This document shows, piece by piece, positions 1 to 11,924 of a DNA stretch of 11,936 nucleotides. How positions within the stretch are numbered: position 1 is the stretch's first letter; every line of letters starts with the position of its first letter. This DNA is from an uncultured archaeon (lineage in GTDB: Archaea > Asgardarchaeota > Thorarchaeia > Thorarchaeales > Thorarchaeaceae). Made by a program: the position numbers and the translations under genes. Location of the stretch: assembly GCA_964590575.1 (NCBI GenBank), contig CAZPWM010000097.1, forward strand, positions 1-11,936. Reading direction: 5' to 3'. The notes under the pieces were generated by a model. It saw nothing but the letters and a program-made list of their open reading frames with translations, was not told the DNA's origin and ran no database searches.

Positions 1-814
1 CCCATTTCTGATAAACAGCATCGATGCCATCACCTACGACTTCTATATCCGTAATCTCTCCCATGCCAGCTTCATGGAGCCATCGAACATGATCAATTGT
101 GCAGGGATTGATGCCAATGCATCTTGCAGCTGTTGCATCTGCAGCTACTGGATCGGTACTCGCTATGATTGTGTCCATCTTCACTGGTGTGCCACTCCAT
201 GGACCACTACCAGACTTGCCGTAAAAGCCATCGATAACACTGAGAGTGGGTGGTAGGGTCTTACAGATATCGTAGACGAAGTTATTCGTTCCAAATTGGT
301 GCATGGAGTATTTGTTACGTGTAGTGAGCATACCGAACATATTCTTCAATCCCATAGTGATTGTTGTATGATGCAGCGTCTTCATTGTTGGTACCGTGAT
401 GATAGCTGACTCCACAGCGATTCGGGCCACCTTAAATTTCGCAATTCCTCGAGGGGTCTCCACCTCTAATTCGACCTTGTCAACAAGCTTCCCCATGTTG
501 ACATACTCAGAACCCAATCGATCAATCACTTCCATCATACCTGTTTCAATAATTGCTTTGTCTGGTGATGTTATCCCACCCTCTGTTTCAACCACTATGG
601 CTCTCTTGTCAAGCTCCATGATCTTCATTATCACTGCTTCAACAACAATGGGGTCGGTTGTTATCCCGGTTTCGAAGGTGTGCCCTGTGATGAGATTCGG
701 CTTTACCAGGACAGTCTCATAGGGCTCAAGAGCCTCCTTGAACGGTATCAATTCCATAGCTCTGAATACTGGTTCAAGGCCACGTTCTCCCTTTACAACA
801 GATACTAATGACAC
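1..814 (-). CDS. DUF362 domain-containing protein (putative Fe-S cluster-binding family), 3' end runs off the window
   Basis: Not in the ORF track; translated by hand from GTG at 814: MSLVSVVKGERGLEPVFRAMELIPF...VLVKPNLITG...GITTDPIVVEAVI...IITVPTMKTLHHTTITMGLKNMFG...LSVIDGFYGKSGSGPWSGTP...IIASTDPVAADATAARCIG...IEVVGD. Open to position 2. The VKPN, T.GLKN.FG, IDG...GP and S.DPVA.D motifs are typical of DUF362. Confidence 0.88.
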   Translation of the reverse strand, partial: MSLVSVVKGERGLEPVFRAMELIPFKEALEPYETVLVKPNLITGHTFETGITTDPIVVEAVIMKIMELDKRAIVVETEGGITSPDKAIIETGMMEVIDRLGSEYVNMGKLVDKVELEVETPRGIAKFKVARIAVESAIITVPTMKTLHHTTITMGLKNMFGMLTTRNKYSMHQFGTNNFVYDICKTLPPTLSVIDGFYGKSGSGPWSGTPVKMDTIIASTDPVAADATAARCIGINPCTIDHVRWLHEAGMGEITDIEVVGDGIDAVYQKW

Positions 815-907
815 GGCTCTATTTACAGAATGTCGGCTATTTAAATCTAAAATTGGAGAGAATGTGTTCGTTTGGCAGATTTAAGTGATCATTGATTTAC
901 CAGTTCA

Positions 908-966
908 GGCAAGAAGAGATATTCGGACCTGATTATCTACAGTACAGGCAAGAGAAGCAGATGTTG
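908..966 (+). repeat. Gene-tail repeat copy 1 (degenerate)
   Basis: g GCA AGA a GAG ATA TTC GGA CCT GAT TAT CTA CAG TAC AGG CAA GAG AAG CAG ATG TTG = AR(+1 nt)EIFGPDYLQYRQEKQM; stop changed to TTG, ATG lost; only a weak hairpin relic at about 982-1002. Confidence 0.9.
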
Positions 967-1089
967 TATCCTCAAACAATAGATGAGAAGCCATTCCTCT
1001 TCGTAACCTATAATCTTAAAGAAGTTGATTCCCAATTCTAAGGGAACCAGTGAGAAACGGAATACGCTTCATTGAAAGGATGTGACGTT

Positions 1090-2412
1090 GTGAGTAAACA
1101 GGAATCACAGATGCTAGAGAGAGTGCATAGAGAAGAAATCAGCTTCATTGACCTCATGTTTTCAGATTTGTCGGGTCAGCTGAAATGTGTGACCATCTCA
1201 CCGAGGGAATTAGAAGTATGCTTAGAGCAGGGCAAATGGTTTGATGGTTCGTCTGTCGAGGGGTTTACCAGAATCCATGAGAGTGACATGTTGCTGATTC
1301 CTGATGCAGCAACCTATATCAAGTTGCCTTGGCTGCGAGACGGAAGAAAAGCGGCAAGAATCATTTGTGATGTCTGTGAACCTGACAGAGTACCTTTTGC
1401 TGGTGCACCTCGAAACATTTTAAGACGCATTTTCGAGAAGACTGAGACCAAGGGCTGGTTCTACAAGGTTGGCCCCGAAATCGAGTTCTATCTATTTGGA
1501 TCAAAAAGTGAAGGAAACTACCAAGATAGTGCGAGTTACTTCGATTTTTCCCCAAAGGATTTGGGCACCGACATTCGAGCAGTCATCGTTTCCACCTTGG
1601 AGGACCTCGGAATACAGGTGGGGATGTCGCATCATGAGTGTGGTCCCAGTCAGCATGAGATTGACATTGGATATAGTAACGCGTTGAATTGTGCAGACAA
1701 CATCTTGGTTGCTAAGCAAGCCATCAAGACTGTTGCCAGTAGCAGGAATCTTCATGCCTCGTTTATGCCAAAACCCAGATCAGACGTGGCGGGTAGTGGA
1801 ATGCATACTCACCAATCCATATTCAACAGTAGTGGGGAGAACCTTTTCCATGATGAGGACGACCCATATCGACTCTCCTCTCTCGCGTACCATTTCATGG
1901 GGGGACAATTACAACACATCAGAGAGATGGCTGCCATCCTCTGTCCAACAGTCAACAGCTATAAGCGACTAGGTGGATTCGAGGCGCCAGTCTACGTTTG
2001 TTGGGGACTACGAAATCGGTCTGCGCTGATTCGAGTCCCAAGATATGGTAAGAATCGACAAGAGCCTGCGAGACTGGAACTTAGATGTCCAGATCCAAGC
2101 TGCAATCCTTACATTGCATTTGCAGTTATGTTGGCAGCAGGAATGAAAGGTATCGAGAAGAAGATAGAACCCCCGGAACCTGTAGAAGAAGATGTCTTTG
2201 ATTTCGACGATGCCAAACTTGCACAGTTCTATATCAAATCCTTGCCCTCTGATCTTGGCGAAGCACTAGAAGAGTTTGAGAAAAGTAAGTTCATGAAAGA
2301 AACTTTGGGCGAACATGCGTTTAACAAGTATCTCGGACTCAAACTAGTAGAATGGACAGAGTTCAAGCGATGTGTTTCTGATTGGGAACGAGAACGCTAC
2401 ATGGATTTGTGA
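1090..2412 (+). CDS. glnA: Glutamine synthetase type I (GSI-alpha-like)
   Basis: Motifs FDGSSVEGF, GPEIEFYLF, HHECGPSQHEI, FMPKP, GSGMHTHQS, NSYKRL-GGFEAP, NRSALIRVP, RLELRCPDPSCNPY; about 440 aa. ORF opens at TTG 1072, but GTG 1090 follows an AGGATGTGA RBS-like motif and is the likelier start. Confidence 0.95.
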   Translation: MSKQESQMLERVHREEISFIDLMFSDLSGQLKCVTISPRELEVCLEQGKWFDGSSVEGFTRIHESDMLLIPDAATYIKLPWLRDGRKAARIICDVCEPDRVPFAGAPRNILRRIFEKTETKGWFYKVGPEIEFYLFGSKSEGNYQDSASYFDFSPKDLGTDIRAVIVSTLEDLGIQVGMSHHECGPSQHEIDIGYSNALNCADNILVAKQAIKTVASSRNLHASFMPKPRSDVAGSGMHTHQSIFNSSGENLFHDEDDPYRLSSLAYHFMGGQLQHIREMAAILCPTVNSYKRLGGFEAPVYVCWGLRNRSALIRVPRYGKNRQEPARLELRCPDPSCNPYIAFAVMLAAGMKGIEKKIEPPEPVEEDVFDFDDAKLAQFYIKSLPSDLGEALEEFEKSKFMKETLGEHAFNKYLGLKLVEWTEFKRCVSDWERERYMDL

Positions 2413-2420
2413 CTCAATAA

Positions 2421-2448
2421 TCGCTCTCGTTACCGATAGCGAGGTTTT
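2421..2448 (+). terminator. Possible stem-loop terminator after glnA
   Basis: TCGCT-c-TCG-ttac-CGA-t-AGCGA (8 bp stem, one mismatch) beginning 9 nt after the stop, followed by ggtttt. Confidence 0.45.
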
Positions 2449-2571
2449 CGGAATTGTCTTTCCACTATCTAGAGTATGCCAATTATCTCAACAGACGGGG
2501 GGTATGAAATGAGTGGTCAGCAGCAAATGGCATAACAACGCATCATCTCGAAAACAAGGAAGTGGAAAAGC

Positions 2572-2604
2572 GTCATGGCACGCGAGATACTCGGACCTGA
2601 CTAT
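2572..2604 (+). repeat. Gene-tail repeat copy 2 (3'-truncated)
   Basis: GTC ATG GCA CGC GAG ATA CTC GGA CCT GAC TAT = VMAREILGPDY; similarity ends 15 nt before the stop of the convergent gene at 2620. Confidence 0.92.
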
Positions 2605-2619
2605 AGGCCGGTTGGAGGA

Positions 2620-4665
2620 TCACCACTGAATATCTACCCAATACGCAGGATGGTCTGATTGTGGGTCCGTAACGTATTCGCAATCCGAAACGGTTGTTCC
2701 TGGAGAGAGGAAAATGTGGTCAATTTCCCTGCTATTGTTCTCTCCAAGGCTGTTTGTTCCTGTTGGCCACTTGACCCACCAGGAATCAGCTAGAACATCT
2801 GTTGTGAGGTTGTATGGCTCACTGTTCGGTCTAAAATTGAAATCACCCATGAATATCACGTTGCTTTTCCCACTAGACGCATCCAGAATATCATTTTGTA
2901 GAATCATCTTGGTAGATGTTCGTCCATATGTATGCGTTACGTAAACAGTGAATGTTGTCGAACCAACAGTTATCTCAGCCTCGATTGTGGCGGTCTGCTT
3001 CTGGTCGACATCCTCATTATAATGATAGATGGTTCTAGGATTCTCAATCGGATACTTTGACAGTAGCGCAACTCCTGTTGTCCCTGTGACTCCTTTTGGT
3101 CCGAAGTACGAATAAAGGTTCAATTTGTTAGCCAAGTATCTCACAACATCGCAATTTCCCGCAATCTTGCTTGTTTCTTGGAGGCCGATGATATCTGCGT
3201 CGATGTTTCTAATAACCCCGAGCTGGCCATCGTAGTTCTTATTCTGAGCATCGCTGACTCCTTGTTGTAGATTGTAAGTAAGGAGTCGCAAAGAAACAGC
3301 ATCGCCCGATGGGGCTATAGGGTGAGCCTCAAACACAATAGAACCTGTAAGAGTTCCTAGGAACATGACTATCAAAAGCCCCGCGATGATGGTTTCTGTT
3401 CGAGGGAGTTGATGTTGTGTTTCAAAGGAGGGTATATTGTCCTTTACCTTGTAGATAGCTATCAGGAGCACTATCCCAGCTATGAGAAATATGAACCAGA
3501 ACATGTCTCTGAGCAACGGACCAATCACTGGAATAAAACCCCAGACAGAAGTGAGTATTAATGTGAATAACAACACGAGCATGTATAATCCACCTCCTAA
3601 CGTGAAGGCTATGCAAGCTGCCCGTGATGTTGGTACTAACTCAAGACTTGCTAATTTGTGACAGAGGAGAATGAAATCGAATAGAACGATTGGGAACGTG
3701 GCTATCATCAGGTACAACAAGATCGGATGCAGAAACGTTGTAGGCGGAGATAGGATTGGATAGAGGGCCGGGATATCTGGAAAGGGAATTTGATTGACAT
3801 AGACCGTCAAGACAAACAAAGCCACAAACGAGATATTCCAAAGTAAAACTGCCTTTGGCTTCAATCTAGATATTAAGTGTGGACGGTACAACAGAGTGAG
3901 TGCAAACAGTGTGGTCATCAGTGCAACGCCAGATACGACAGCTACATAGTTACTTTCAGTCCATCTAGAGATTACGACAGGGCTACTGAATGCAAAACTG
4001 ACAAAGAATAGAATGCTTGTCAGCCCGAGGGTGATTCCTGCAAGAGTTCTCTTTCGTAAGCGCTGTGGGGCACTTGTCGGTGTAGCAAGGCTGGATTGAG
4101 GGGTCGATGATGCCACATCTTGTACTTCCTTTGAAAAGCCGACCAACATGAAAACTCCTATCGCAGCTAATACCCATCCAATTGCTTGACCCCACCCATA
4201 TGTAGAGAGGTCGATAGTGAAGTTCAGCGTCCTAAGAAGGACAGATGCTGCTAAAGCTAAAGAGAAGCCAATCCCAAACTTAAGGACACGTTGGTTCTTT
4301 TTATCCGACTTACCAAACAACAAGAAGGCAGGAAACAGTATGAAGAAACAGCCAACACCGAGACCTGAGAATGCCATTCTCATCACGGAATCAAAGAGCG
4401 GTTCAACTACTCTGCATGCAATCATGACACCTCCTGCTACAATGAGAATCTTGTCAGGGATCGACTTCCTGAATGCAAGGAAAATGATAGGTGAGAACAT
4501 GAACAACAGCGCGATAGTATTCTGGTTCAGTGATAATGTCATGAGAAGGAGGATGTATGTAGATTCTACATAGTCGGAGAATAGCTGGAGGAAAAACAGC
4601 AACATTATGGTAGTGAAGATGACATCGGAATAATATTCCTCAAAGAGCTCGGCGTTTACTGGCAT
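2620..4665 (-). CDS. Polytopic membrane protein with C-terminal endonuclease/exonuclease/phosphatase (EEP) domain
   Basis: About 445 aa of successive hydrophobic helices, then EEP motifs LLTYNLQQG, DIIGLQE, GVALLSKYPI, VIFMGDFN, IDHIF, SDHPAYW. Confidence 0.9.
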   Translation of the reverse strand: MPVNAELFEEYYSDVIFTTIMLLFFLQLFSDYVESTYILLLMTLSLNQNTIALLFMFSPIIFLAFRKSIPDKILIVAGGVMIACRVVEPLFDSVMRMAFSGLGVGCFFILFPAFLLFGKSDKKNQRVLKFGIGFSLALAASVLLRTLNFTIDLSTYGWGQAIGWVLAAIGVFMLVGFSKEVQDVASSTPQSSLATPTSAPQRLRKRTLAGITLGLTSILFFVSFAFSSPVVISRWTESNYVAVVSGVALMTTLFALTLLYRPHLISRLKPKAVLLWNISFVALFVLTVYVNQIPFPDIPALYPILSPPTTFLHPILLYLMIATFPIVLFDFILLCHKLASLELVPTSRAACIAFTLGGGLYMLVLLFTLILTSVWGFIPVIGPLLRDMFWFIFLIAGIVLLIAIYKVKDNIPSFETQHQLPRTETIIAGLLIVMFLGTLTGSIVFEAHPIAPSGDAVSLRLLTYNLQQGVSDAQNKNYDGQLGVIRNIDADIIGLQETSKIAGNCDVVRYLANKLNLYSYFGPKGVTGTTGVALLSKYPIENPRTIYHYNEDVDQKQTATIEAEITVGSTTFTVYVTHTYGRTSTKMILQNDILDASSGKSNVIFMGDFNFRPNSEPYNLTTDVLADSWWVKWPTGTNSLGENNSREIDHIFLSPGTTVSDCEYVTDPQSDHPAYWVDIQW

Positions 4666-4733
4666 GGCAGAGGATATACTCTACCCACCTAAAATGTGTG
4701 TCTAAAAAAAGCAGGAATACTAATTTTATCGCT

Positions 4734-4793
4734 ATGGCACGAGAGATACTCGGACCTGACTATCTGCTGTACAGGCAAGACAAACAGATGTAG
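4734..4793 (+). repeat. Gene-tail repeat copy 3 (intact frame)
   Basis: ATG..TAG, 60 nt = MAREILGPDYLLYRQDKQM*. Confidence 0.95.
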
Positions 4794-4803
4794 ATTTACA
4801 CGA

Positions 4804-4841
4804 AAGAGGGGATTCATACTCCCCTTTTCTCTTTCTTTTTT
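4804..4841 (+). terminator. Stem-loop plus pyrimidine tract belonging to repeat copy 3
   Basis: AAGAGGGGA-ttcatac-TCCCCTTTT (9 bp including one G:U) followed by ctctttctttttt. Confidence 0.7.
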
Positions 4842-4979
4842 AATTCTCATACTCGTAACCATTCGTACCAATGGAAAGATTGCGTGGGTTGGTGAGTCAT
4901 CATCCACTACCGCATTTGTATGCCACCTAGAGGACGATAGATGAAAGGGATGGAAAATTTACGGACCGGAGTAATTGCC

Positions 4980-4987
4980 TTTTATAT
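4980..4987 (+). promoter_or_regulatory. Candidate archaeal TATA box for the MBL-fold gene
   Basis: TTTTATAT about 25-30 nt upstream of the GGTGTGAT RBS-like motif (5011-5018); motif and spacing only. Confidence 0.45.
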
Positions 4988-5023
4988 GGTGAAAGTGCAG
5001 TGAAAGTACTGGTGTGATCTGAA

Positions 5024-5671
5024 ACGAGATTCACAATAGTGTATGATAACGAGGCAAAGCCAGGTTTCAAGAGTGGTTGGGGATTCTCTTGTCTTATTGG
5101 AGAAAGCGTGTTATTTGATACTGGACCGGATTCCAGAGCACTACTGTACAACTTGGAGAAGCTGGAGATAGAGCTCCAAGAGATTGATGCAGTTGTACTC
5201 TCTCACAGTCATGGCGATCATACAGGTGGTATTGAGATTGTGGGGCTGCTTGATGATGTCCGAGTGTTTGTTCCAAGATCGTTCTTTAAACCCTTGAGGA
5301 GAAGACTCTCCAGATTTGACCATGTAGAGCTGGTAGAAGTCAGTGATGTGATGAATGTCATGGAGGGAATCACTTCAACTGGTGAGATTGGCAGAATAGG
5401 AGAACAGTCCTTAGTAGTGCGAACCCCCAAGGGACTTGTGTTAGTAACGGGTTGCAGTCATCCGGGTCTAGATACAATAATGAATATGACACAGCAGTCT
5501 GGAGTCATTTATGGTGTCATTGGCGGATTTCATGGGTTTGATAAGCTTGAGATTCTCAACGATGTTCGGATGATAGTTCCATGTCACTGCACAAGACTGA
5601 AGAAACGCATTCTCACACACTATCCTGAAACTAGTAGACAATGTGCTGCAGGCAGTATCTTTGACATCTAG
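5024..5671 (+). CDS. MBL-fold metallo-hydrolase (COG1237 / DHPS-like MBL subfamily)
   Basis: Motifs (RFTI)VYDN, GWGFSCLI, LFDTG, LSHSHGDHTGG (HxHxDH), TGCSHPG, GGFH, PCHCT. First canonical start is GTG 5039, but family-like sequence extends to an ACG at 5024 (see findings). Confidence 0.9.
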   Translation, partial: TRFTIVYDNEAKPGFKSGWGFSCLIGESVLFDTGPDSRALLYNLEKLEIELQEIDAVVLSHSHGDHTGGIEIVGLLDDVRVFVPRSFFKPLRRRLSRFDHVELVEVSDVMNVMEGITSTGEIGRIGEQSLVVRTPKGLVLVTGCSHPGLDTIMNMTQQSGVIYGVIGGFHGFDKLEILNDVRMIVPCHCTRLKKRILTHYPETSRQCAAGSIFDI

Positions 5672-5765
5672 CTAATCAAGGCGGTAAAATGGTGTTGAGT
5701 GTGCTTAATCATTATTTCTGAGCGAAGAGATCATCTGTTTCATTCAGATGAGTACATGCTCTTTG

Positions 5766-5792
5766 GACAAGAGAAGCAGATGTAGTTTCGAA
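5766..5792 (+). repeat. Gene-tail repeat copy 4 (5'-truncated)
   Basis: ga CAA GAG AAG CAG ATG TAG tttcgaa = QEKQM*; no clear terminator hairpin retained. Confidence 0.85.
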
Positions 5793-5817
5793 TTTCTACT
5801 TAGCCATTCTACACAAT

Positions 5818-6069
5818 TCAGAATGCTCGAATACGACCAGACTCAACAATATCTATTGGGACCCCCTCAATCTCATCAGGGATGATATCACACTCTTCAA
5901 GTTCTCCTACTGGTTTCTTTTGTATGACATAGCAGATAATACAGAGCTGGTTAGTCTTGATGCCATCGATATGCTTGTGACCGATTGCTACACCTACGAC
6001 TCCGGATTTCCTCATGAGCTCCTTTTCATACTCTGCCTTTACCCGTTTGACTTCTTCCAGCGTGACCAT
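5818..6069 (-). CDS. Small protein homologous to the N-terminal domain of the adjacent serine protease
   Basis: 83 aa, GAGGT RBS, starts 9 nt after the protease stop; aligns by eye over its whole length with protease residues 1-79 (EEVKR/EEVRR, VVGVAIGHK/VVGVMIGYK, IICYV/IICLV, DIIP/DLIP, GRIRAF/GKLRAF). Confidence 0.88.
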   Translation of the reverse strand: MVTLEEVKRVKAEYEKELMRKSGVVGVAIGHKHIDGIKTNQLCIICYVIQKKPVGELEECDIIPDEIEGVPIDIVESGRIRAF

Positions 6070-6078
6070 GGAACAACC

Positions 6079-7092
6079 TCAATCAGTGATTAGTTCCGCA
6101 TCCAGTAAGTCCAGATAGTTTTGCACCTGATTTGCTATTGTAATGTTCTGCTCGTCACTACCAGCGAAGAGATTGCCCACTGCATATCCCTCCATGTCCA
6201 AGATTAGACTTCCTGAGTCGCCTCCAGCACTGAAACCCTCCTTGCTTATAACTATCTGATCTCTGAAATACGCAAGTCTCCCTCCGTAGTCTATAGGACC
6301 CAAGGTGGCATCTATACCAGTTACCACTCCATCAACTGTATGGCATGACGTTCTTCCCGACTTCTGTACAAGCATGTCTAATTGAGTTTGTCTAATACCC
6401 CGTGGCACTCCAATGTCCACAATGCTACTTGAAACGTCAGTCTCAGTCACTTCAATCATGGCAGCATCTACTATGTTATACTCAGGATACGCAACCACTG
6501 GTTGTAGCCTTGTCATCCTTCCAAAAGCCCTCGCAGGAACATTATAAATCCCGCTCCAGAACCTTGCTGCTGCACATTCGCTCTGGTCCAAAGCGAAGCT
6601 TATTGGTACGAATCTCAAGAGATGTCCTATCGTGTCGTTTTGAACAGTACCGCCATCATACGATCCAGGCTGGAGATAGGGGTCTCCGATCTTGGCATTA
6701 TTTGAGTTTGCTCCAACGTGATTGTTAGTTCCAATGCATGTCTTGCCTGTCTTCTTATCTCTGAGCAGCTCTCCATTCGTGCCTGCAGTAACCAAATAGT
6801 GACCTCCTGAGGTGCCCATGGGGCAAGGTCTGTGCCGAGCCTTTTTATCTATTTGAAAGGCCCTCAATTTCCCAACCTGTATCACATCAATCATTTCTTC
6901 ATCTATGATAGAGGGAATAAGGTCTTGTTTTTTCAAGTCCTGTTCCTTGACTTTCCTCTCTACTAGACAAATTATGCTTAATGTATCGGTCTTTTCACCT
7001 GCTGATACCTTGTATCCTATCATCACTCCTACTACATTGGCCATCCTCAATAGCCTCTTCTCATGAATCCTCCTTACCTCTTCAATCTTCAT
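6079..7092 (-). CDS. Trypsin-like (clan PA) serine protease, Nal1-like architecture
   Basis: Catalytic triad motifs TNNHV (His), VDAA (Asp), GDSGS (Ser); also QPG..DGG, VQKSGRT, VGNLFAG. AGGTGG RBS upstream; no signal peptide apparent. Confidence 0.9.
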   Translation of the reverse strand: MKIEEVRRIHEKRLLRMANVVGVMIGYKVSAGEKTDTLSIICLVERKVKEQDLKKQDLIPSIIDEEMIDVIQVGKLRAFQIDKKARHRPCPMGTSGGHYLVTAGTNGELLRDKKTGKTCIGTNNHVGANSNNAKIGDPYLQPGSYDGGTVQNDTIGHLLRFVPISFALDQSECAAARFWSGIYNVPARAFGRMTRLQPVVAYPEYNIVDAAMIEVTETDVSSSIVDIGVPRGIRQTQLDMLVQKSGRTSCHTVDGVVTGIDATLGPIDYGGRLAYFRDQIVISKEGFSAGGDSGSLILDMEGYAVGNLFAGSDEQNITIANQVQNYLDLLDAELITD

Positions 7093-7269
7093 ACTGCTTA
7101 ACCACCTATTAGGACTCTCACCTCAGACAATCTAGAATGACATCTATCATGCAAATTGTGGTCCCGTAATGAAGATGCGGTAACTTCTACTTCAATCTTT
7201 TCACAAATTTAGGAAATAGGCATATAGATTGGATTCCAATCCTTCCTTGAAGATGGAACCACTCGGTTC

Positions 7270-7340
7270 GTCATGGCACGAGAAATATTTGGACCCGAGT
7301 ATCTGCCGTACAGGCAAGAAGAAACAGATGTAGTTTCAAG
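7270..7340 (+). repeat. Gene-tail repeat copy 5 (1-nt insertion near the end)
   Basis: GTC ATG GCA CGA GAA ATA TTT GGA CCC GAG TAT CTG CCG TAC AGG CAA GA(a)G AAA CAG ATG TAG tttcaag = VMAREIFGPEYLPYRQE..KQM*. Confidence 0.95.
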
Positions 7341-7349
7341 AATTCAATG

Positions 7350-7373
7350 AGAGAGGTGAATCCTCTCTTTTCT
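7350..7373 (+). terminator. Stem-loop plus pyrimidine tract belonging to repeat copy 5
   Basis: AGAGAGG-tgaat-CCTCTCT then tttct. Confidence 0.7.
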
Positions 7374-7496
7374 GACCAAGCAGCTAAGAGCAATCGTCAA
7401 CCGGAAAGTGGATTCCTAGAAATGCTTCACTGCGATGACGGACGGAGCTATTGAAGTCGCTGTAGTGGTAGTAGTCATTTTCTTTACTTGAATTGG

Positions 7497-7715
7497 TTAT
7501 CCAGTTTTTCGTCCCTTTGTGAGATAATAAACCACCGAGATGGCGAAGAGGATGAGACCTCCTATATGAATCAAGGTAATAGTCCACCACTCAACTACCA
7601 AGTTCTCAGGAGGAGTTACCCAAATACCTAAGGGAATTCCCAGAATGAGCTTCCAGACTAATCCGATTATAAATAAGACAAAGCCCACTATTGCTACTTT
7701 TCCTGAAATATGCAA
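7497..7715 (-). CDS. Small hypothetical membrane protein (about 2 TM helices)
   Basis: 72 aa, TTG start preceded by purine-rich GGGAGAGGAAGAG, two hydrophobic segments and a basic C-terminus (TKGRKTG); fills the space between repeat copies 5 and 6. Confidence 0.72.
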   Translation of the reverse strand: MHISGKVAIVGFVLFIIGLVWKLILGIPLGIWVTPPENLVVEWWTITLIHIGGLILFAISVVYYLTKGRKTG

Positions 7716-7774
7716 GACTCTTCCTCTCCCGTGTATGTCAAACAGGTATCTAATTAGTATTCCGTTCAGTTTAT

Positions 7775-7849
7775 CTTTTAAGAATCATCATGGCGAGAGA
7801 GATATTCGGACCTGAGTATCTACCGTACAGGCAAGAGAAACAAATGTAA
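7775..7849 (+). repeat. Gene-tail repeat copy 6 (intact frame, TAA stop)
   Basis: CTT TTA AGA ATC ATC ATG GCG AGA GAG ATA TTC GGA CCT GAG TAT CTA CCG TAC AGG CAA GAG AAA CAA ATG TAA = LLRIIMAREIFGPEYLPYRQEKQM*. Confidence 0.95.
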
Positions 7850-7859
7850 CTTCCATCAT

Positions 7860-7892
7860 TTGAGAGGGGCATTCCCTCTCAACACTTCTTTT
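7860..7892 (+). terminator. Stem-loop plus pyrimidine tract belonging to repeat copy 6
   Basis: TTGAGAGGG-gcatt-CCCTCTCAA (perfect 9 bp) then cacttctttt. Confidence 0.72.
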
Positions 7893-8012
7893 CATAATAG
7901 ATTGATTAATTATTTCTATCTTAATCTCACTTGTGCTTCACTTCTTCTCAGAACAAAAGGCAGAAATTACAATTCATCCATACCTAAGATGGATGCTGGT
8001 GGAGTTGAGGTT

Positions 8013-8969
8013 TTGAATAAATCGTATTTTCAGAGCTTTTTGATTGTTGTTTCAAGCTTAGTATTTCCATGTGCTGTTATGGAGTATAGTACACCACTAT
8101 TCACATACGTTCAAGTATGGATTTTCCCTTTTGGGGCTTTTTTTCAAGAATTCGGGATTGGTAATTATCCTACATCCAGCCAATTTGTTATGCTATTCTC
8201 TCAGAGCTATCTGATTCTATTCAGTATAATAGAACTAGTGACAAGCGTGGCGATTGGACTGATTCTTGCCACAATAGTAGTTACATTACAAGAAAGCACA
8301 GATATCATTAAGAAAATATATGTCTTCACGATTTTATTATTATTAATTACAATACAAGTTGCTCTCGCTATTGATGTGGTGACATTATTTGCGTTAGGTG
8401 GATCCTTATTATGGGCTAATTACATCTTCCCTCTACCAATCCCACTTCTCATAGCGATCCTATTGTTAAAGCATAAAGGCTTTAGATTTATGCGTGAATC
8501 GTATTTTCAGGGGTTTTTAATTTTTATTTCAAGCCTAATGTTGCCATTCGCTGTCGTGGGCTTTGAGACTAATAGCCAAAATTGGCTCTTCCCATTTGGT
8601 GTGTATCAACTAAGTTTTAGTGAACATCTAGTAAGGAGTGGATTTCTTATGCCATTCTATCGTGAAAATTGGTTTCCTTATTTCATCATATTTGCAGTTG
8701 TCTGGGGGGCGATAGGACTGATTTTTGCCGCAGAAGTGATTAAATTATGGGGAGGTAAAAAATTCACTAAGAAAGCATTTTCTATTTCTATTATATTGCT
8801 TACATTGGAAATTGTTGGCCCCATTGTAGCGGTATTATTGATGTATGGCTGGACCTTAGCATATATTTCATATATCATTCCTCTACCGATTCCATATCTC
8901 GTAGCAATTCTATTACTGAGGCGTCGCGGTGTCACGCTTATGTCTGTAAAGAAACTTAGAAGATCTTGA
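8013..8969 (+). CDS. Hypothetical integral membrane protein made of two tandem ~159 aa homologous halves
   Basis: Hydrophobic throughout; both halves carry SYFQ.FLI..SSL..P.AV, W.FPFG, IGLI.A, YI.PLPIP.L.AILLL. Start placed at TTG 8013 (GGAGTTGAGG upstream; aligns with ATG 8490 of the second half); ATG 7989 is an alternative. The ORF-track start at 7860 lies inside the repeat hairpin and is unlikely. Confidence 0.82.
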   Translation: MNKSYFQSFLIVVSSLVFPCAVMEYSTPLFTYVQVWIFPFGAFFQEFGIGNYPTSSQFVMLFSQSYLILFSIIELVTSVAIGLILATIVVTLQESTDIIKKIYVFTILLLLITIQVALAIDVVTLFALGGSLLWANYIFPLPIPLLIAILLLKHKGFRFMRESYFQGFLIFISSLMLPFAVVGFETNSQNWLFPFGVYQLSFSEHLVRSGFLMPFYRENWFPYFIIFAVVWGAIGLIFAAEVIKLWGGKKFTKKAFSISIILLTLEIVGPIVAVLLMYGWTLAYISYIIPLPIPYLVAILLLRRRGVTLMSVKKLRRS

Positions 8970-9008
8970 AATAACTCATGATATACTTTAGATTCAATTC
9001 ATTATTCA

Positions 9009-9032
9009 TACAGACAAGAGAAGCAGAGGTTG
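9009..9032 (+). repeat. Gene-tail repeat copy 7 (short, degenerate)
   Basis: TAC AGA CAA GAG AAG CAG AGG TTG = YRQEKQ(R)(L). Confidence 0.75.
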
Positions 9033-9119
9033 CCTTCTCCATAGTAGCCAGTGTTTGCTACCAACTAGCCTCTTGAGGTGAATGGTCAATCACTCTTGGT
9101 ATAGTTGAACTATACATCT

Positions 9120-9188
9120 AGAGAAACAGATGTAGTTTCAAGTTCAGATCCAGAGATGGGCTTCCTTTCTCTTCATTCTTCTTTTTCT
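9120..9188 (+). repeat. Gene-tail repeat copy 8 (5'-truncated) with imperfect terminator hairpin
   Basis: a GAG AAA CAG ATG TAG tttcaag = EKQM*; then AGAGAtGG-gctt-CCttTCTCT (9152-9172) and a long T/C tract. Confidence 0.88.
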
Positions 9189-9202
9189 AACACAATCAAT
9201 TG

Positions 9203-10690
9203 TCATCGTAATCTATTGGCTTCCAAGAACTTAGCCCAATATCGCTCATTTCTGAAGATATAAGTGGTCGGAACTGCGGACTTAAAACCGATTCCGGATT
9301 TTTCCCGCCGAAAACCACTAGTCCTCTCTTGACAACTTCTGCAATAAGGCACGCCAAGCGCCACAGCGTACTGCCTAAGACCAGCAACAGCGAACTCCTC
9401 ACTATGGTCTATACGCACCTCAGCCGGACCGCAACAGAGACAACAGCAGTCAGGCCAGACCACATCCTTTCTGAGCGTTTCCACTTCGTATTCAGGCGAG
9501 GAGCTTACCTCGCCGCTGACTTCAAACGTGTCTATGACCGAGGAATCCTCCGAGCTGCGAAAAGCATGCAGAATCTTCCCATAAGACACAAAGACCATCC
9601 CGAAGCTAACTACTGGCCTGCTGATATCAGCCATCAACCCACCCGGGAGGCTCTCCGACTCCCACCGCTTGGTGACACGGGAAGTGTTGATGACGATGAT
9701 CTTGTCGATTGAGGTCACGAAAATGAATCCGTTCGCTATATCCCATGAGTCCCTGGTGACAAGTGATTTGATACAGGTGTGCCATTGCTCCTCTCCGGTG
9801 GAGAGATCGTAGGCCAATATGACATTCGCTGTGTGGAGCGGAATTGTTTTACCAACTAGTCCTTCTACGTAGAGAGTATTGCCTTGCACTACCATAGAGT
9901 CCATCTTCTCCATAGTTGGTGTGAACATTGCCGCAACTTTTCCGCTGGACAGATCTAGTCCAACCAGCTTCTTTGTACAGTATGCATATCCGCCGGCAAT
10001 CGTTGGGGGGCGACCGTAGTGCAGCACATCATGAGCCTCCCACAAGACAGCCCCGTTGTTGGGGTCAAGTGCATACAGGTTGTCATCTGCAGCAATCAGC
10101 AACTTGTCCTCGACCAGTATAGGAATGGAGTGGTTCTTGTGTTTTGACTTCCATATCCATCGTCTGGAACCATTAGAAGAATCAATTGCATAGACATGCT
10201 TGTCTTGGCATCCGAAGAAGACTGTCCCATAAGCCACAGTAGGGCATGATATTTCGCCCCCAGAAGAGAATTGCCATCTTCCTTTGCCGGTTTCCATATC
10301 AACAGCATGCAGCTTCTTATCCTTGGTTGTCACATAGACGACCCCTTCAGCCAAGACCGGTCCTTCGACCCAATTAATGAAGTCTTTACCAGAAGAGAAA
10401 TGCCAAATTTCAGAGCCTGTTTGGGAATCAAGAGCGTACATCTTCTTATCATTACTAGGGGCGAATATAATGTCGTTTTCCTCGATAAGAGGAAGCTTCA
10501 ACCCCTTGCCCATTTTGAAAGTCCACTTCACTGATCCTGACATAGCATCAAGCGCGTAGATGATACCTTTCTTGCTTCCAAAGATGATTGTGCTGCTCTC
10601 TGAGGTTGTGCCTCCTTGACGGAGGCCAAATATACTGCTATCTGCCTGAAACTCCCAAGACTTCTCCAACGGAGGAACTGGTTTTGACAT
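9203..10690 (-). CDS. PQQ-binding-like beta-propeller repeat protein with C-terminal Cys-rich domain
   Basis: Repeated YALD..(S/T)G...W.F units (YALDAMSGSVKWTF, YALDSQTGSEIWHF, HAVDMETGKGRWQF, YAIDSSNGSRRWIW, YALDPNNGAVLWEA, AYDLSTGEEQWHT); C-terminal WPDCCCLCCGP...VPYCRSC; no signal peptide apparent. Confidence 0.9.
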   Translation of the reverse strand: MSKPVPPLEKSWEFQADSSIFGLRQGGTTSESSTIIFGSKKGIIYALDAMSGSVKWTFKMGKGLKLPLIEENDIIFAPSNDKKMYALDSQTGSEIWHFSSGKDFINWVEGPVLAEGVVYVTTKDKKLHAVDMETGKGRWQFSSGGEISCPTVAYGTVFFGCQDKHVYAIDSSNGSRRWIWKSKHKNHSIPILVEDKLLIAADDNLYALDPNNGAVLWEAHDVLHYGRPPTIAGGYAYCTKKLVGLDLSSGKVAAMFTPTMEKMDSMVVQGNTLYVEGLVGKTIPLHTANVILAYDLSTGEEQWHTCIKSLVTRDSWDIANGFIFVTSIDKIIVINTSRVTKRWESESLPGGLMADISRPVVSFGMVFVSYGKILHAFRSSEDSSVIDTFEVSGEVSSSPEYEVETLRKDVVWPDCCCLCCGPAEVRIDHSEEFAVAGLRQYAVALGVPYCRSCQERTSGFRREKSGIGFKSAVPTTYIFRNERYWAKFLEANRLR

Positions 10691-10780
10691 GATATGTAGA
10701 ACTCCCTTAACTCACCGACTGTCTTGGGAAACGGATGGAATGGAGCTTCCTTGAAGATAAGGATGTCGATTCTGATCTTC

Positions 10781-10816
10781 TTGCTGCACCGACAAGAGAA
10801 ACAGATGTAGTTTTCA
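10781..10816 (+). repeat. Gene-tail repeat copy 9 (5'-truncated)
   Basis: TTG CTG CAC CGA CAA GAG AAA CAG ATG TAG ttttca = LLHRQEKQM*. Confidence 0.88.
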
Positions 10817-10825
10817 GTTTCAAGT

Positions 10826-10858
10826 GAGAGAGGGTTTCCCTCTCTCCTTTACTTTTCC
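10826..10858 (+). terminator. Stem-loop plus pyrimidine tract belonging to repeat copy 9
   Basis: GAGAGAGGG-ttt-CCCTCTCTC (perfect 9 bp) then ctttacttttcc. Confidence 0.72.
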
Positions 10859-10866
10859 AATTGCAG

Positions 10867-11802
10867 TCACAAAGGAAACTGTTTGGATAGCCAAGGACAG
10901 CAATCTCTGTTTGTCCTGTGGAAGTCCTCCCAGGTAAGCCATCCTAACCTACGGCGTATCTTAAGCCAATCCAGATTCTTCCTGTGAGGCAGGTCGACAG
11001 CTATGGATTCTGCATTCCTCTTGTAATCATTGAATTTGCATCCATATAACCTGCGAGAGGGATGGATTTTGAACATTTGAGGTGTCAACAGGAGGAACAG
11101 TGTGTTCTCAGGATTCCTCTTGGATAATGGTTCACAGAGATGTTTGTTTTCTTCCAACAGGACATCGATGATTCTAGAAATCTGGTTCCGAGTGGCGTCA
11201 TAGGTGATCTGATAGCTGATGTCTGACAACACCTTTGCTTCTACTAGCACTGCGAACCCGTTGCTGGGATTTATGAGCAAGGCGTCTAGGTGTGTGGGAC
11301 CTTCCACATTCTTCTTTCCATAAGCACTGCTTAAGACGTGGGGTACGAATTGGCGCTCATGTAAGTTTCGGCGAAGCCACGCCTTGTAGGAGGGCGGTGA
11401 GGGGAGGGTGGTTTCAAAGAATAGCTCTAAATCTCCTTCCAGACACTCTCGCCAAGAAGCCAAGCCGGTAAGAGGAGGAGTTTCACCAAAAGCCTCAATG
11501 AAGAGCTTCTGCAACCTCTGAAGTCGTCGTTCGTCATAGAACATTATCATCATACAGGAGGCAACCCAGAACCGTTCATCCTTCTCTATCTGACAGGGTT
11601 CCTTCATCTTTGACAGAGGTCTTCCTCTCATATCCGGGGTGTCAGCAAGAAAACGATGATACCTTTGGATGCTATTCTTGTAGTAGCTCAGATGCTTCTC
11701 ATTCCTAATGCATTCTCCTCGATACTTGACCTTGGCAAAATGGTTCATCAACTGCTCTTCCGTGAAAGGTAGATATGTATCATCTAAAACATCTTTCATC
11801 AA
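10867..11802 (-). CDS. Hypothetical protein, probable PD-(D/E)xK nuclease fold
   Basis: 311 aa, GGGAG RBS; EGPTHLDALL...AVLVEAKVLSDI...RNQISR resembles the D...ExK...Q catalytic arrangement of PD-(D/E)xK nucleases. Start TTG 11802 or ATG 11799. Confidence 0.7.
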   Translation of the reverse strand: MMKDVLDDTYLPFTEEQLMNHFAKVKYRGECIRNEKHLSYYKNSIQRYHRFLADTPDMRGRPLSKMKEPCQIEKDERFWVASCMMIMFYDERRLQRLQKLFIEAFGETPPLTGLASWRECLEGDLELFFETTLPSPPSYKAWLRRNLHERQFVPHVLSSAYGKKNVEGPTHLDALLINPSNGFAVLVEAKVLSDISYQITYDATRNQISRIIDVLLEENKHLCEPLSKRNPENTLFLLLTPQMFKIHPSRRLYGCKFNDYKRNAESIAVDLPHRKNLDWLKIRRRLGWLTWEDFHRTNRDCCPWLSKQFPL

Positions 11803-11840
11803 TGATTACTCCCTACTTCAAGAATAATTCGTTCGATATG

Positions 11841-11924
11841 AATCTGCTGAAGATTGTCATGGCACGGGAAATTCTCGGACCTGACTACTTATCTTACAGG
11901 CAAGAGAAACGGACGTAGTTTCAA
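11841..11924 (+). repeat. Gene-tail repeat copy 10 (longest, intact frame)
   Basis: AAT CTG CTG AAG ATT GTC ATG GCA CGG GAA ATT CTC GGA CCT GAC TAC TTA TCT TAC AGG CAA GAG AAA CGG ACG TAG tttcaa = NLLKIVMAREILGPDYLSYRQEKRT*; any hairpin would fall beyond the window edge. Confidence 0.95.

Follow-up and report, generated by a model that had tools for sequence, protein, structure and literature searches.

Contig CAZPWM010000097.1 of assembly GCA_964590575.1, a stretch of 11,936 nucleotides from an uncultured archaeon of the Thorarchaeaceae which was analysed as a whole (the window), is best read as the middle of a flexible gene-cassette array: an integron-like island in which gene units are separated by copies of the tail of one host gene, coding for an acyl-CoA dehydrogenase (ACAD), and in which these tail copies would be the recombination sites. 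The anatomy of the array, namely ACAD-tail copies bounding flexible units of one or two genes on either strand, downstream of ACAD in one Thorarchaeota family, is something of which we are highly confident. That general homologous recombination between the tail copies drives the array is a more tentative proposal, to which we give a probability of about 0.45-0.5.

The window is one entire contig (C97) of a genome, G000, of 3.4 Mb in 194 contigs (GC 0.435, 91% complete). Repeat copies were located by repeat finding and with an nhmmer profile built from 5 copies, and this recovered the ten copies which the first-pass annotation, made from the letters of the window, had placed on the + strand: 5 are full-length, 1 is a 5' part and 4 are 3' parts (Table 1). 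Two of the starts given at that stage (7775 and 11841) are 12-15 nt too early, while the others agree with ours. As had already been seen, each gap between gene units in the window holds a copy, the sole exception being 6070-6078, within a pair of genes read as proteases, and the gene orientations then given match the listing of open reading frames (ORFs). The left edge of the contig falls within a cassette. A weak hairpin follows copy 8, so that copy and hairpin together span 9119-9172 (+), and the best three terminator-like sites in the window are the hairpins after copies 3, 6 and 9, which are given in Table 1. The motif GAGAGG-N2-10-CCTCTC occurs 7 times in the whole genome, and 3 of these occurrences lie within the window.

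A genome-wide profile search, which the first-pass annotation had called for, found that the repeat is not scattered. In G000 it is confined to the window and to a second contig, C100, which carries 4 copies, all on the + strand; no profile match outside these two contigs was better than E 0.3 in the whole genome. The 22-nt 3' core of the repeat, searched with at most 4 mismatches, is found 8 times on C97, twice on C100 and once (at 4 mismatches, which is chance level) in the other ~3.38 Mb. The clustering of the copies on C97 is far beyond chance. C100 begins inside a copy which is near-identical (3 mismatches) to the terminal copy of C97. Since one contig ends and the other starts inside near-identical copies, we concluded that the repeat is where the assembly was interrupted, and C97 and C100 may adjoin each other in the genome. 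An assembly artefact is ruled out as the origin of the array, as the same architecture is present in dozens of independent assemblies, including one closed chromosome. No tRNA gene was found in the window, and no Rfam family matched at the gathering score in the window, in C100 or in two related loci (L014 and L015); a tRNA-derived or Rfam-family origin of the repeat is not supported by these searches. With the Rfam threshold relaxed to E 1, the window yielded a single sub-threshold match, to snoR160, a C/D-box snoRNA family, at 8942-9015 (-) (31 bits against a cut-off of 42 bits, E 0.09), which is probably due to chance.

The repeat consists of the last ~21 codons of an ACAD gene (IVMAREIFGPDYLPYRQEKQM, then a stop codon) followed by a GAGAGG..CCTCTC terminator hairpin. 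Its copies translate as MAREI[LF]GP[DE]YLxYRQEKQM and then a stop, and the differences between copies lie mainly at third codon positions. In seven loci of related genomes (L014, L015, L017, L018, L023, L027 and L031) an ORF of 412-415 aa has the first copy as its C-terminus; it ends in GAEGGSHVQKIVMAREIFGPEYLPYRQEKQM before its stop codon and has all three ACAD Pfam domains. The ACAD gene is also present in 11 of 73 further loci, and in 11 of these 11 the end of the gene is the first copy and the remaining copies lie downstream; the two sets (18 loci) overlap, some entries being the same places or the same genomes. An empty site was found in G031, a genome of another genus which is 97% complete: there the ACAD gene ends in IVMGREIFGKEYLPYRQKGQFD and a stop, and a GAGAGG..CCTCTC hairpin and a T-rich run follow. 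No further copy stands in the 18.5 kb downstream of this gene, and the repeat search matched nowhere in G031. The ACAD gene ending in the first copy, together with this empty site, means that what is repeated is the native ACAD 3' end: ~21 codons, the stop codon and the terminator belonging to this gene. In 69 full copies the homology begins abruptly, on its 5' side, at ATC GTC ATG, which is the Ile-Val-Met of the final ACAD helix. The peptide encoded by the repeat is presumably the canonical last helix of the protein, and on this assumption we set aside the reading of the repeat as a micro-protein gene, an ORF of 19 aa (MAREIFGPDYLPYRQEKQM) of which the ATG, the 19 codons and the stop are intact in 38 of the 67 displaced full copies.

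The first-pass annotation had indeed taken the repeat for the 3' end and terminator of one host gene, and the locus for a hotspot where small cargo units gather at that 3' end; the ending of the ACAD gene in the first copy, the empty site and the arrays running downstream of ACAD in both sets of loci bear this out. The parent gene itself, which had been predicted to the left of the window, is elsewhere in the assembly: the ACAD orthologue of G000 (80% identity) lies on contig C155 (3995-5188), and this contig terminates inside the repeat. The resident tail on C155 starts with CAGGCAAGA. Among the copies of the window, the one at 905 alone shares this start, and it may be a truly displaced native tail. 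The genes which adjoin ACAD vary with the species (leucine biosynthesis, an epimerase, an antiporter, Ras-like GTPases, a methyltransferase). In one genome, G035, three genes for small GTPases of the Ras family stand in tandem a few kb upstream of ACAD (L014, 3249-5261).

The units between the copies are small. The 88 intervals have a median size of 1188 nt (quartiles 754 and 1909), and 90% of them are no longer than 2.5 kb. One ORF of at least 90 aa is present in 58 of these intervals, two in 15, none in 10 and more in 5, and 53 ORFs point the same way as the repeat, 59 the opposite way. Among the cargo are glutamine synthetase, redox enzymes and a large number of secreted proteins of the beta-helix and beta-propeller types, and the GC content of the window units ranges from 0.35 to 0.50.

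We compared the units all against all, using 119 segments from 22 loci. The same units recur, with matches from edge to edge, in other species where their neighbours and their order are different. The glutamine synthetase unit of the window (972-2571) recurs between repeats in G004 and in G014 with 78% identity, and the units of those two genomes are 94% alike over 1481 of 1483 nt. A complete glutamine synthetase cassette can be delimited in three species, at 972-2571 of the window, at 4155-5636 of L020 and, on the reverse strand, at 8050-9532 of L016 (78-94%). The unit at 10816-11855 of the window (1040 nt) is found again as a unit of 1040 nt in G018 (76%), and the second unit of C100 recurs in G012 and G014. 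The order of units is NosD, rhodanese, glnA and LVIVD in G014, and rhodanese, another unit, NosD, GNAT and glnA in G004. Units are thus gained, lost and reordered with breakpoints at the repeats, which is what a comparison between genomes had been expected to show; neither a scatter of the repeat over the genome nor an identical order of units in relatives, the two observations named in advance as speaking against such an array, was found. Two intervals, L029 6951-8844 (GNAT and alcohol dehydrogenase) and L019 7548-9377 (ferredoxin and LVIVD), each resemble a fusion of two cassettes known from other genomes, with no repeat between them, which suggests the loss of a repeat copy.

The homology of shared cassettes ends inside the flanking repeats (12 aligned pairs, among those listed, and 17 pairs by segment identity). 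Segment identities were computed for the 17 cassette pairs and compared with random repeat pairs. Shared units are still alike on the hairpin side of the upstream repeat (identity 0.67, background 0.58) and in the last 60 nt ahead of the downstream repeat (0.74, background 0.55), and past the latter the homology is gone (0.58, equal to the background). The excess identity of the 3' half of the upstream repeat and of the 5' half of the downstream repeat is only +0.05, too little to place the crossover. In four salt-marsh read runs most of the stretch is present as short contigs at a depth of 2-8, together with alternative sequences joined at the edges of repeats (four joints at repeats); in one run the end of the ACAD gene is joined to a copy like that at 7270. 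As many copies, and related species in the same samples, have this repeat in common, the joints cannot be told apart from other copies, and we did not use them as evidence of excision, of circles or of strain polymorphism.

Searched with a 70-nt copy as query, 32 of 61 related genomes have the repeat: it is found in 29 of the 36 of the same Thorarchaeota family and in 23 of the 27 of the same genus, and outside the family there are two weak matches only. A degenerate pattern of 24 letters matched 73 stretches in 185,579 species genomes (one genome per species). Archaeal metagenome bins account for 71 of these, 52 of them titled Candidatus Thorarchaeota and the others Promethearchaeota, Hermodarchaeota or uncultured archaeon, and the two bacterial matches are about what chance would give. 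Among 2.9 million viral contigs the pattern has no match. The copies of a locus share one orientation in 22 of 22 loci and in 60 of 61 loci with several copies. The sole exception, L066 (JAGXOC010000042.1), has copies at 1257 and 3094 (+) and at 5188 (-), and may reflect an inversion between copies. Besides its ACAD-linked array, genome G030 carries a small second one on a different contig.

We propose that the tail copies act as recombination sites. Recombination between two co-oriented copies would loop the intervening unit out as a circle carrying one hybrid copy, and this circle could re-enter at any copy, as could a linear piece of an array from a different cell, whereby the flanking direct repeats would be recreated. 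Rounds of this kind would delete, reorder and exchange units among strains and species while the orientation of the copies would be preserved. The engine would be general homologous recombination acting on 70-110 nt of homology and not a dedicated integrase. After a deletion a displaced copy could turn into a live gene end, and copies which encode a working tail would then be favoured; we propose that displaced copies show a coding type of conservation because any of them may become a live gene end. This conservation is seen in the proportion of minor letters, which is 0.106, 0.094 and 0.287 for first, second and third codon positions (74 full copies, 16 genomes), and in a pN/pS of 0.24 among 62 displaced copies. 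The point at which identity switches varies with the pair compared: among the alignments listed, it lies at about position 43 of the upstream repeat, after the hairpin, or at position 4 of the downstream repeat. Partial copies have their breakpoints scattered across positions 13-59, and in two copies a segment between the two ACAG words is deleted. The variable exchange points, the spread breakpoints, the coding type of pattern and the fact that no enzyme was found (see below) favour homologous recombination.

Several observations weigh against this explanation. Homologous recombination alone does not give nearly every gene its own copy, and a step which joins tails to genes is needed. The 3' core CAAGAGAAACAGATGTAG and the hairpin are retained in almost all copies, the truncated ones included, and the variability of third positions is lower in the 3' core than in the 5' half (0.21 vs 0.32). 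The cross-species pS is 0.54 for displaced copies and 0.90 for live gene tails, a difference which suggests either a constraint on the DNA itself, perhaps as a protein-binding site, or a recent spread. Two independent mosaic junctions coincide at about position 43-47, between TAC and AGGCAAGAG. An inverted repeat with arms of 5 bp, GAAAC-N7-GTTTC, lies across the stop codon, and its arms are not conserved in all copies. The identity of copies is 0.76 within a genome and 0.73 between genomes, hence gene conversion homogenises them only weakly. The displaced copies of G005 conform to the cross-species consensus, and 9-14.5 synonymous positions separate them from the resident tail. This means that most of these copies are not fossils of the resident tail, and the idea of the first-pass annotation, that each insertion displaces the previous gene tail downstream, fails as a general rule. 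The closed chromosome G061 (CP070761.1) has an array of 5 copies at ~3.060-3.065 Mb and no ACAD orthologue (best match 35% identity), so an array can persist without its anchor. Lastly, the genomes are metagenome bins, and the absence of a recombinase is therefore unproven.

A part of these observations would be expected from a true site-specific system, in which a recombinase of a kind not recognised by our searches, encoded elsewhere, would act on the 3' core and the hairpin and would insert and excise circular cassettes of one gene. The near-constant retention of core and hairpin, which extends to 3'-only copies whose 5' extents run from position 13 to 47, points that way, and so do the quieter third positions of the core, the stronger conservation of displaced copies across species, the coincidence of the two mosaic junctions, the inverted repeat at the stop codon and the way in which the G005 copies track the consensus and not the resident tail. 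The single sharp 5' boundary common to all 69 full copies, the one-gene size of the units and the strict co-orientation of the copies fit as well. Against such a system, the homology boundaries differ in other cassette pairs (among the alignments listed), the linkage of repeat halves to cassettes is weak, as given above, and the GAAAC/GTTTC arms are short and not kept in all copies.

The searches for an enzyme count further against it. Among 219 ORFs (12 + 29 + 110 + 68) from the window, C100, 20 related array loci and the closed G061, none has a domain of an integrase, a resolvase or a transposase, which agrees with what had first been read from the window, where neither attC sites nor an integrase or transposase had been seen in any unit. 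PF00589 (Phage_integrase) had no match in G000, while the same search gave a match in each of 14 controls, four of which are archaeal genomes, and it was likewise undetected in the array-bearing genomes G014, G001, G017 and G035, which are 88-97% complete. In these five genomes not even a Xer-type recombinase is detectable by PF00589. The domain is present in 16 of 41 genomes of the family and in none of them does it adjoin the array; on array contigs the sole integrase (G030:C51) stands 20 kb away from the small second array of that genome, with no repeat beside it. PF00239 (Resolvase) is present in 4 of the 22 genomes of the genus besides G000, and was not detected in G014, G004, G005, G017, G018 and G020. 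No tyrosine or serine recombinase was found adjoining the ACAD gene or inside 24 array loci. Classical recombinases (PF00589, PF00239) do not track the arrays. Taken with the observations in its favour, a dedicated enzyme of this kind is in our opinion a possibility to be kept in mind, on the unlikely side.

We hold at a similar, doubtful level the wider idea that Thorarchaeota have a capture platform of their own. Its site would be the coding end of a gene of housekeeping type, with the terminator, it would be worked either by an unrecognised family of recombinases or by general recombination dedicated to this use, tail copies would become attached to single genes, and the resulting cassettes would be traded across species.

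The textbook route for gathering single genes at one site in prokaryotes is the integron, the origin of whose cassettes is still an open question. The arrays described here resemble chromosomal integron arrays, including CALINs, in their small and mostly single-gene units of unrelated functions, each bounded by one co-oriented site-like sequence, in their single chromosomal anchor, and in cassettes which are shared and reordered between genomes. They differ in that no intI was found, in that the sites are not attC and form no long imperfect palindrome, the site being here the coding 3' end of a host gene with its terminator, and in that the genes point either way (53 vs 59) and have no common-promoter orientation. 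Three defining features of integrons, intI, the attC structure and the orientation of the cassettes, were thus looked for and not found. When six stretches from five copies, one of them on both strands, were folded as single-stranded DNA, no attC-like structure was found: they gave only the short terminal terminator hairpin, plus a 5-bp stem in two copies, and the ends of the 70-nt repeat were unpaired. Read by eye, the repeat does not match what we take to be the R/L core consensus of integrons. Archaeal integrons found through their attC sites are reported to be enriched in Asgard archaea (Ghaly et al. 2022, PMC9668308).

The arrays can also be set beside elements which integrate serially at the 3' end of a host gene, for which the cis-mobilisable elements (CIMEs) of streptococci are a parallel. 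As in tandem integration, the direct repeats copy the 3' end of the target gene and an intact gene stands at the end of the island, which is the classical footprint of integrative elements. The array could accordingly be imagined as a graveyard of integrase-bearing elements, serially integrated at the ACAD 3' end, which would later have lost their integrases and most of their content. Such serial integration has been described for Prochlorococcus (bioRxiv 10.1101/2020.12.28.424599): the insertion of tycheposons next to tRNA genes pushes older elements deeper and leaves partial tRNA copies. These islands share with our arrays the direct repeats of a target-gene 3' end, the older inserts lying further out and units without recombinase between two sites. 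They differ in their target, which is a tRNA gene there and a protein-coding gene tail of ~70 nt with a hairpin here, and in that our 88 units are one gene long and have no integrase, several of the hosts having no detectable tyrosine or serine recombinase. No integrase or Pfam-detectable fragment of one was found in any of the 88 units of the 22 loci nor in the G061 array, and no integrase-bearing member turned up there or through the search of the viral contigs, from which the pattern is absent. Moreover the units are small throughout (median 1.2 kb) and consist of one whole gene each, not of remnants, the same small units are intact in several species, and many array-bearing genomes have no detected tyrosine recombinase. 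Decayed integrative elements are for these reasons an improbable source of the array.

Still less credible, to the point of being negligible, is the repeat as a small spreading sequence of its own (MITE-like, REP-like or a terminator module) which invaded the gaps between resident genes; it is short, strictly intergenic and ends in a terminator hairpin, as such a sequence might be, but its copies are not scattered in both orientations, being limited to two contigs of the genome and strictly co-oriented on the + strand, the genes between copies differ and reorder among species while the boundaries of the units hold, and its sequence is that of the ACAD gene end.

Two other types of element can be compared with these arrays. 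In dif/pdif modules, 28-bp Xer sites stand in alternating orientation. Like these modules and other Xer-dependent elements, our arrays have units of one or two genes without a recombinase of their own, bounded by sites of a host type, which would be moved by host enzymes. Their copies are, unlike Xer/dif sites, co-oriented and 70-110 nt long, and no PF00589 protein was found in G000, G014, G001, G017 and G035. The microcin H47 island of E. coli is reported to be excised between flanking direct repeats with no recombinase encoded on the island (PMC3191183, PMC5426353). Excision between direct repeats without a recombinase of the island is what we propose for the arrays; H47 is a single island with two repeats, whereas here dozens of gene-sized units are kept across a family. 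Full-text literature searches found no description of the present array.

The arrays of this Asgard family follow the logic of integrons, with single-gene units, a site for each unit, one orientation of the sites and exchange between species, and they do so with different parts. If general recombination runs them, any gene tail could seed a cassette platform, and accessory genes of Asgard archaea would be shuffled without the enzymes of classical mobile elements. If an enzyme which our searches did not recognise runs them, this would be a new recombinase with a defined target of 22 nt. A capture platform proper to Thorarchaeota would be a second, independently evolved solution to the capture of cassettes, in the archaeal lineage closest to eukaryotes. 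In practice, this hypervariable locus breaks Thorarchaeota assemblies at a known sequence, which is useful for closing genomes and for following gene flow at the level of strains.

Table 1. Repeat copies and genes of the window, in order of position
Feature	Position	Strand	Remarks
DUF362 protein gene	2-814	-	runs off contig start; Pfam E 8.6e-39
Repeat copy 1	905-971	+	full; starts CAGGCAAGA (Gln for Met); stop codon lost (TTG); nhmmer E 2.5e-18
Glutamine synthetase gene	1072-2412	+	unit 972-2571
Repeat copy 2	2572-2604	+	5' part (model positions 1-33); truncated beside 3' end of 2620-4665 (-)
681-aa membrane protein, C-terminal endonuclease/exonuclease/phosphatase domain	2620-4665	-	
Repeat copy 3	4732-4798	+	full, MAREILGPDYLLYRQDKQM then stop; terminator hairpin 4804-4828
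Metallo-beta-lactamase-fold protein gene	5039-5671	+	
Repeat copy 4	5749-5790	+	3' part only; clear core 5766-5790
Two-gene cassette	5818-6069 and 6079-7092	-	both with NAL1-like N-terminal domain
Repeat copy 5	7270-7338	+	full; 1-nt insertion near end, frame lost after RQEE; hairpin 7349-7369
Small ORF, 72 aa	7497-7715	-	FtsX-like match weak, below cut-off
Repeat copy 6	7788-7855	+	full, MAREIFGPEYLPYRQEKQM then stop; terminator hairpin 7860-7882
369-aa protein, no Pfam family	7860-8969	+	internal duplication; low GC 0.35-0.36
Repeat copy 7	9007-9036	+	3' part only, diverged
Repeat copy 8	9119-9140	+	3' core only; profile weak (E 0.011-0.16); 1 mismatch to 22-nt core
PQQ-like beta-propeller protein gene	9203-10690	-	
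Repeat copy 9	10780-10815	+	3' part; terminator hairpin 10826-10846
311-aa protein, no Pfam family	10867-11802	-	within unit 10816-11855
Repeat copy 10	11856-11924	+	full, MAREILGPDYLSYRQEKRT then stop; contig ends in this copy (feature to 11936)

A few minor observations concern the cargo genes. In the gene of the 369-aa protein, the duplication opposes 8011-8082 to 8488-8559 (76%), and this gene has the lowest GC content of the window (0.35). The 311-aa protein shows by eye a D...(V)EAK arrangement (HLDALL ... LVEAKV) and is a candidate for a nuclease of the PD-(D/E)XK type. In G035 the first cassette after ACAD (L014 8352-10172, -) codes for a protein of 606 aa which matches LAGLIDADG_3 weakly (E 3.5e-5). 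The last unit of the G061 array (G061:C1, ~3,060,142-3,065,174; L107/L108) is made of a nitroreductase gene and a DUF362 gene directly before the last copy, and resembles the left end of the window. Finally, at L030 (G030:C22:5000-20000) a lone tail copy stands amid genes of a defence type, namely OLD-like TOPRIM/AAA ATPases, HEPN, GIY-YIG, a DNA methylase and GmrSD.

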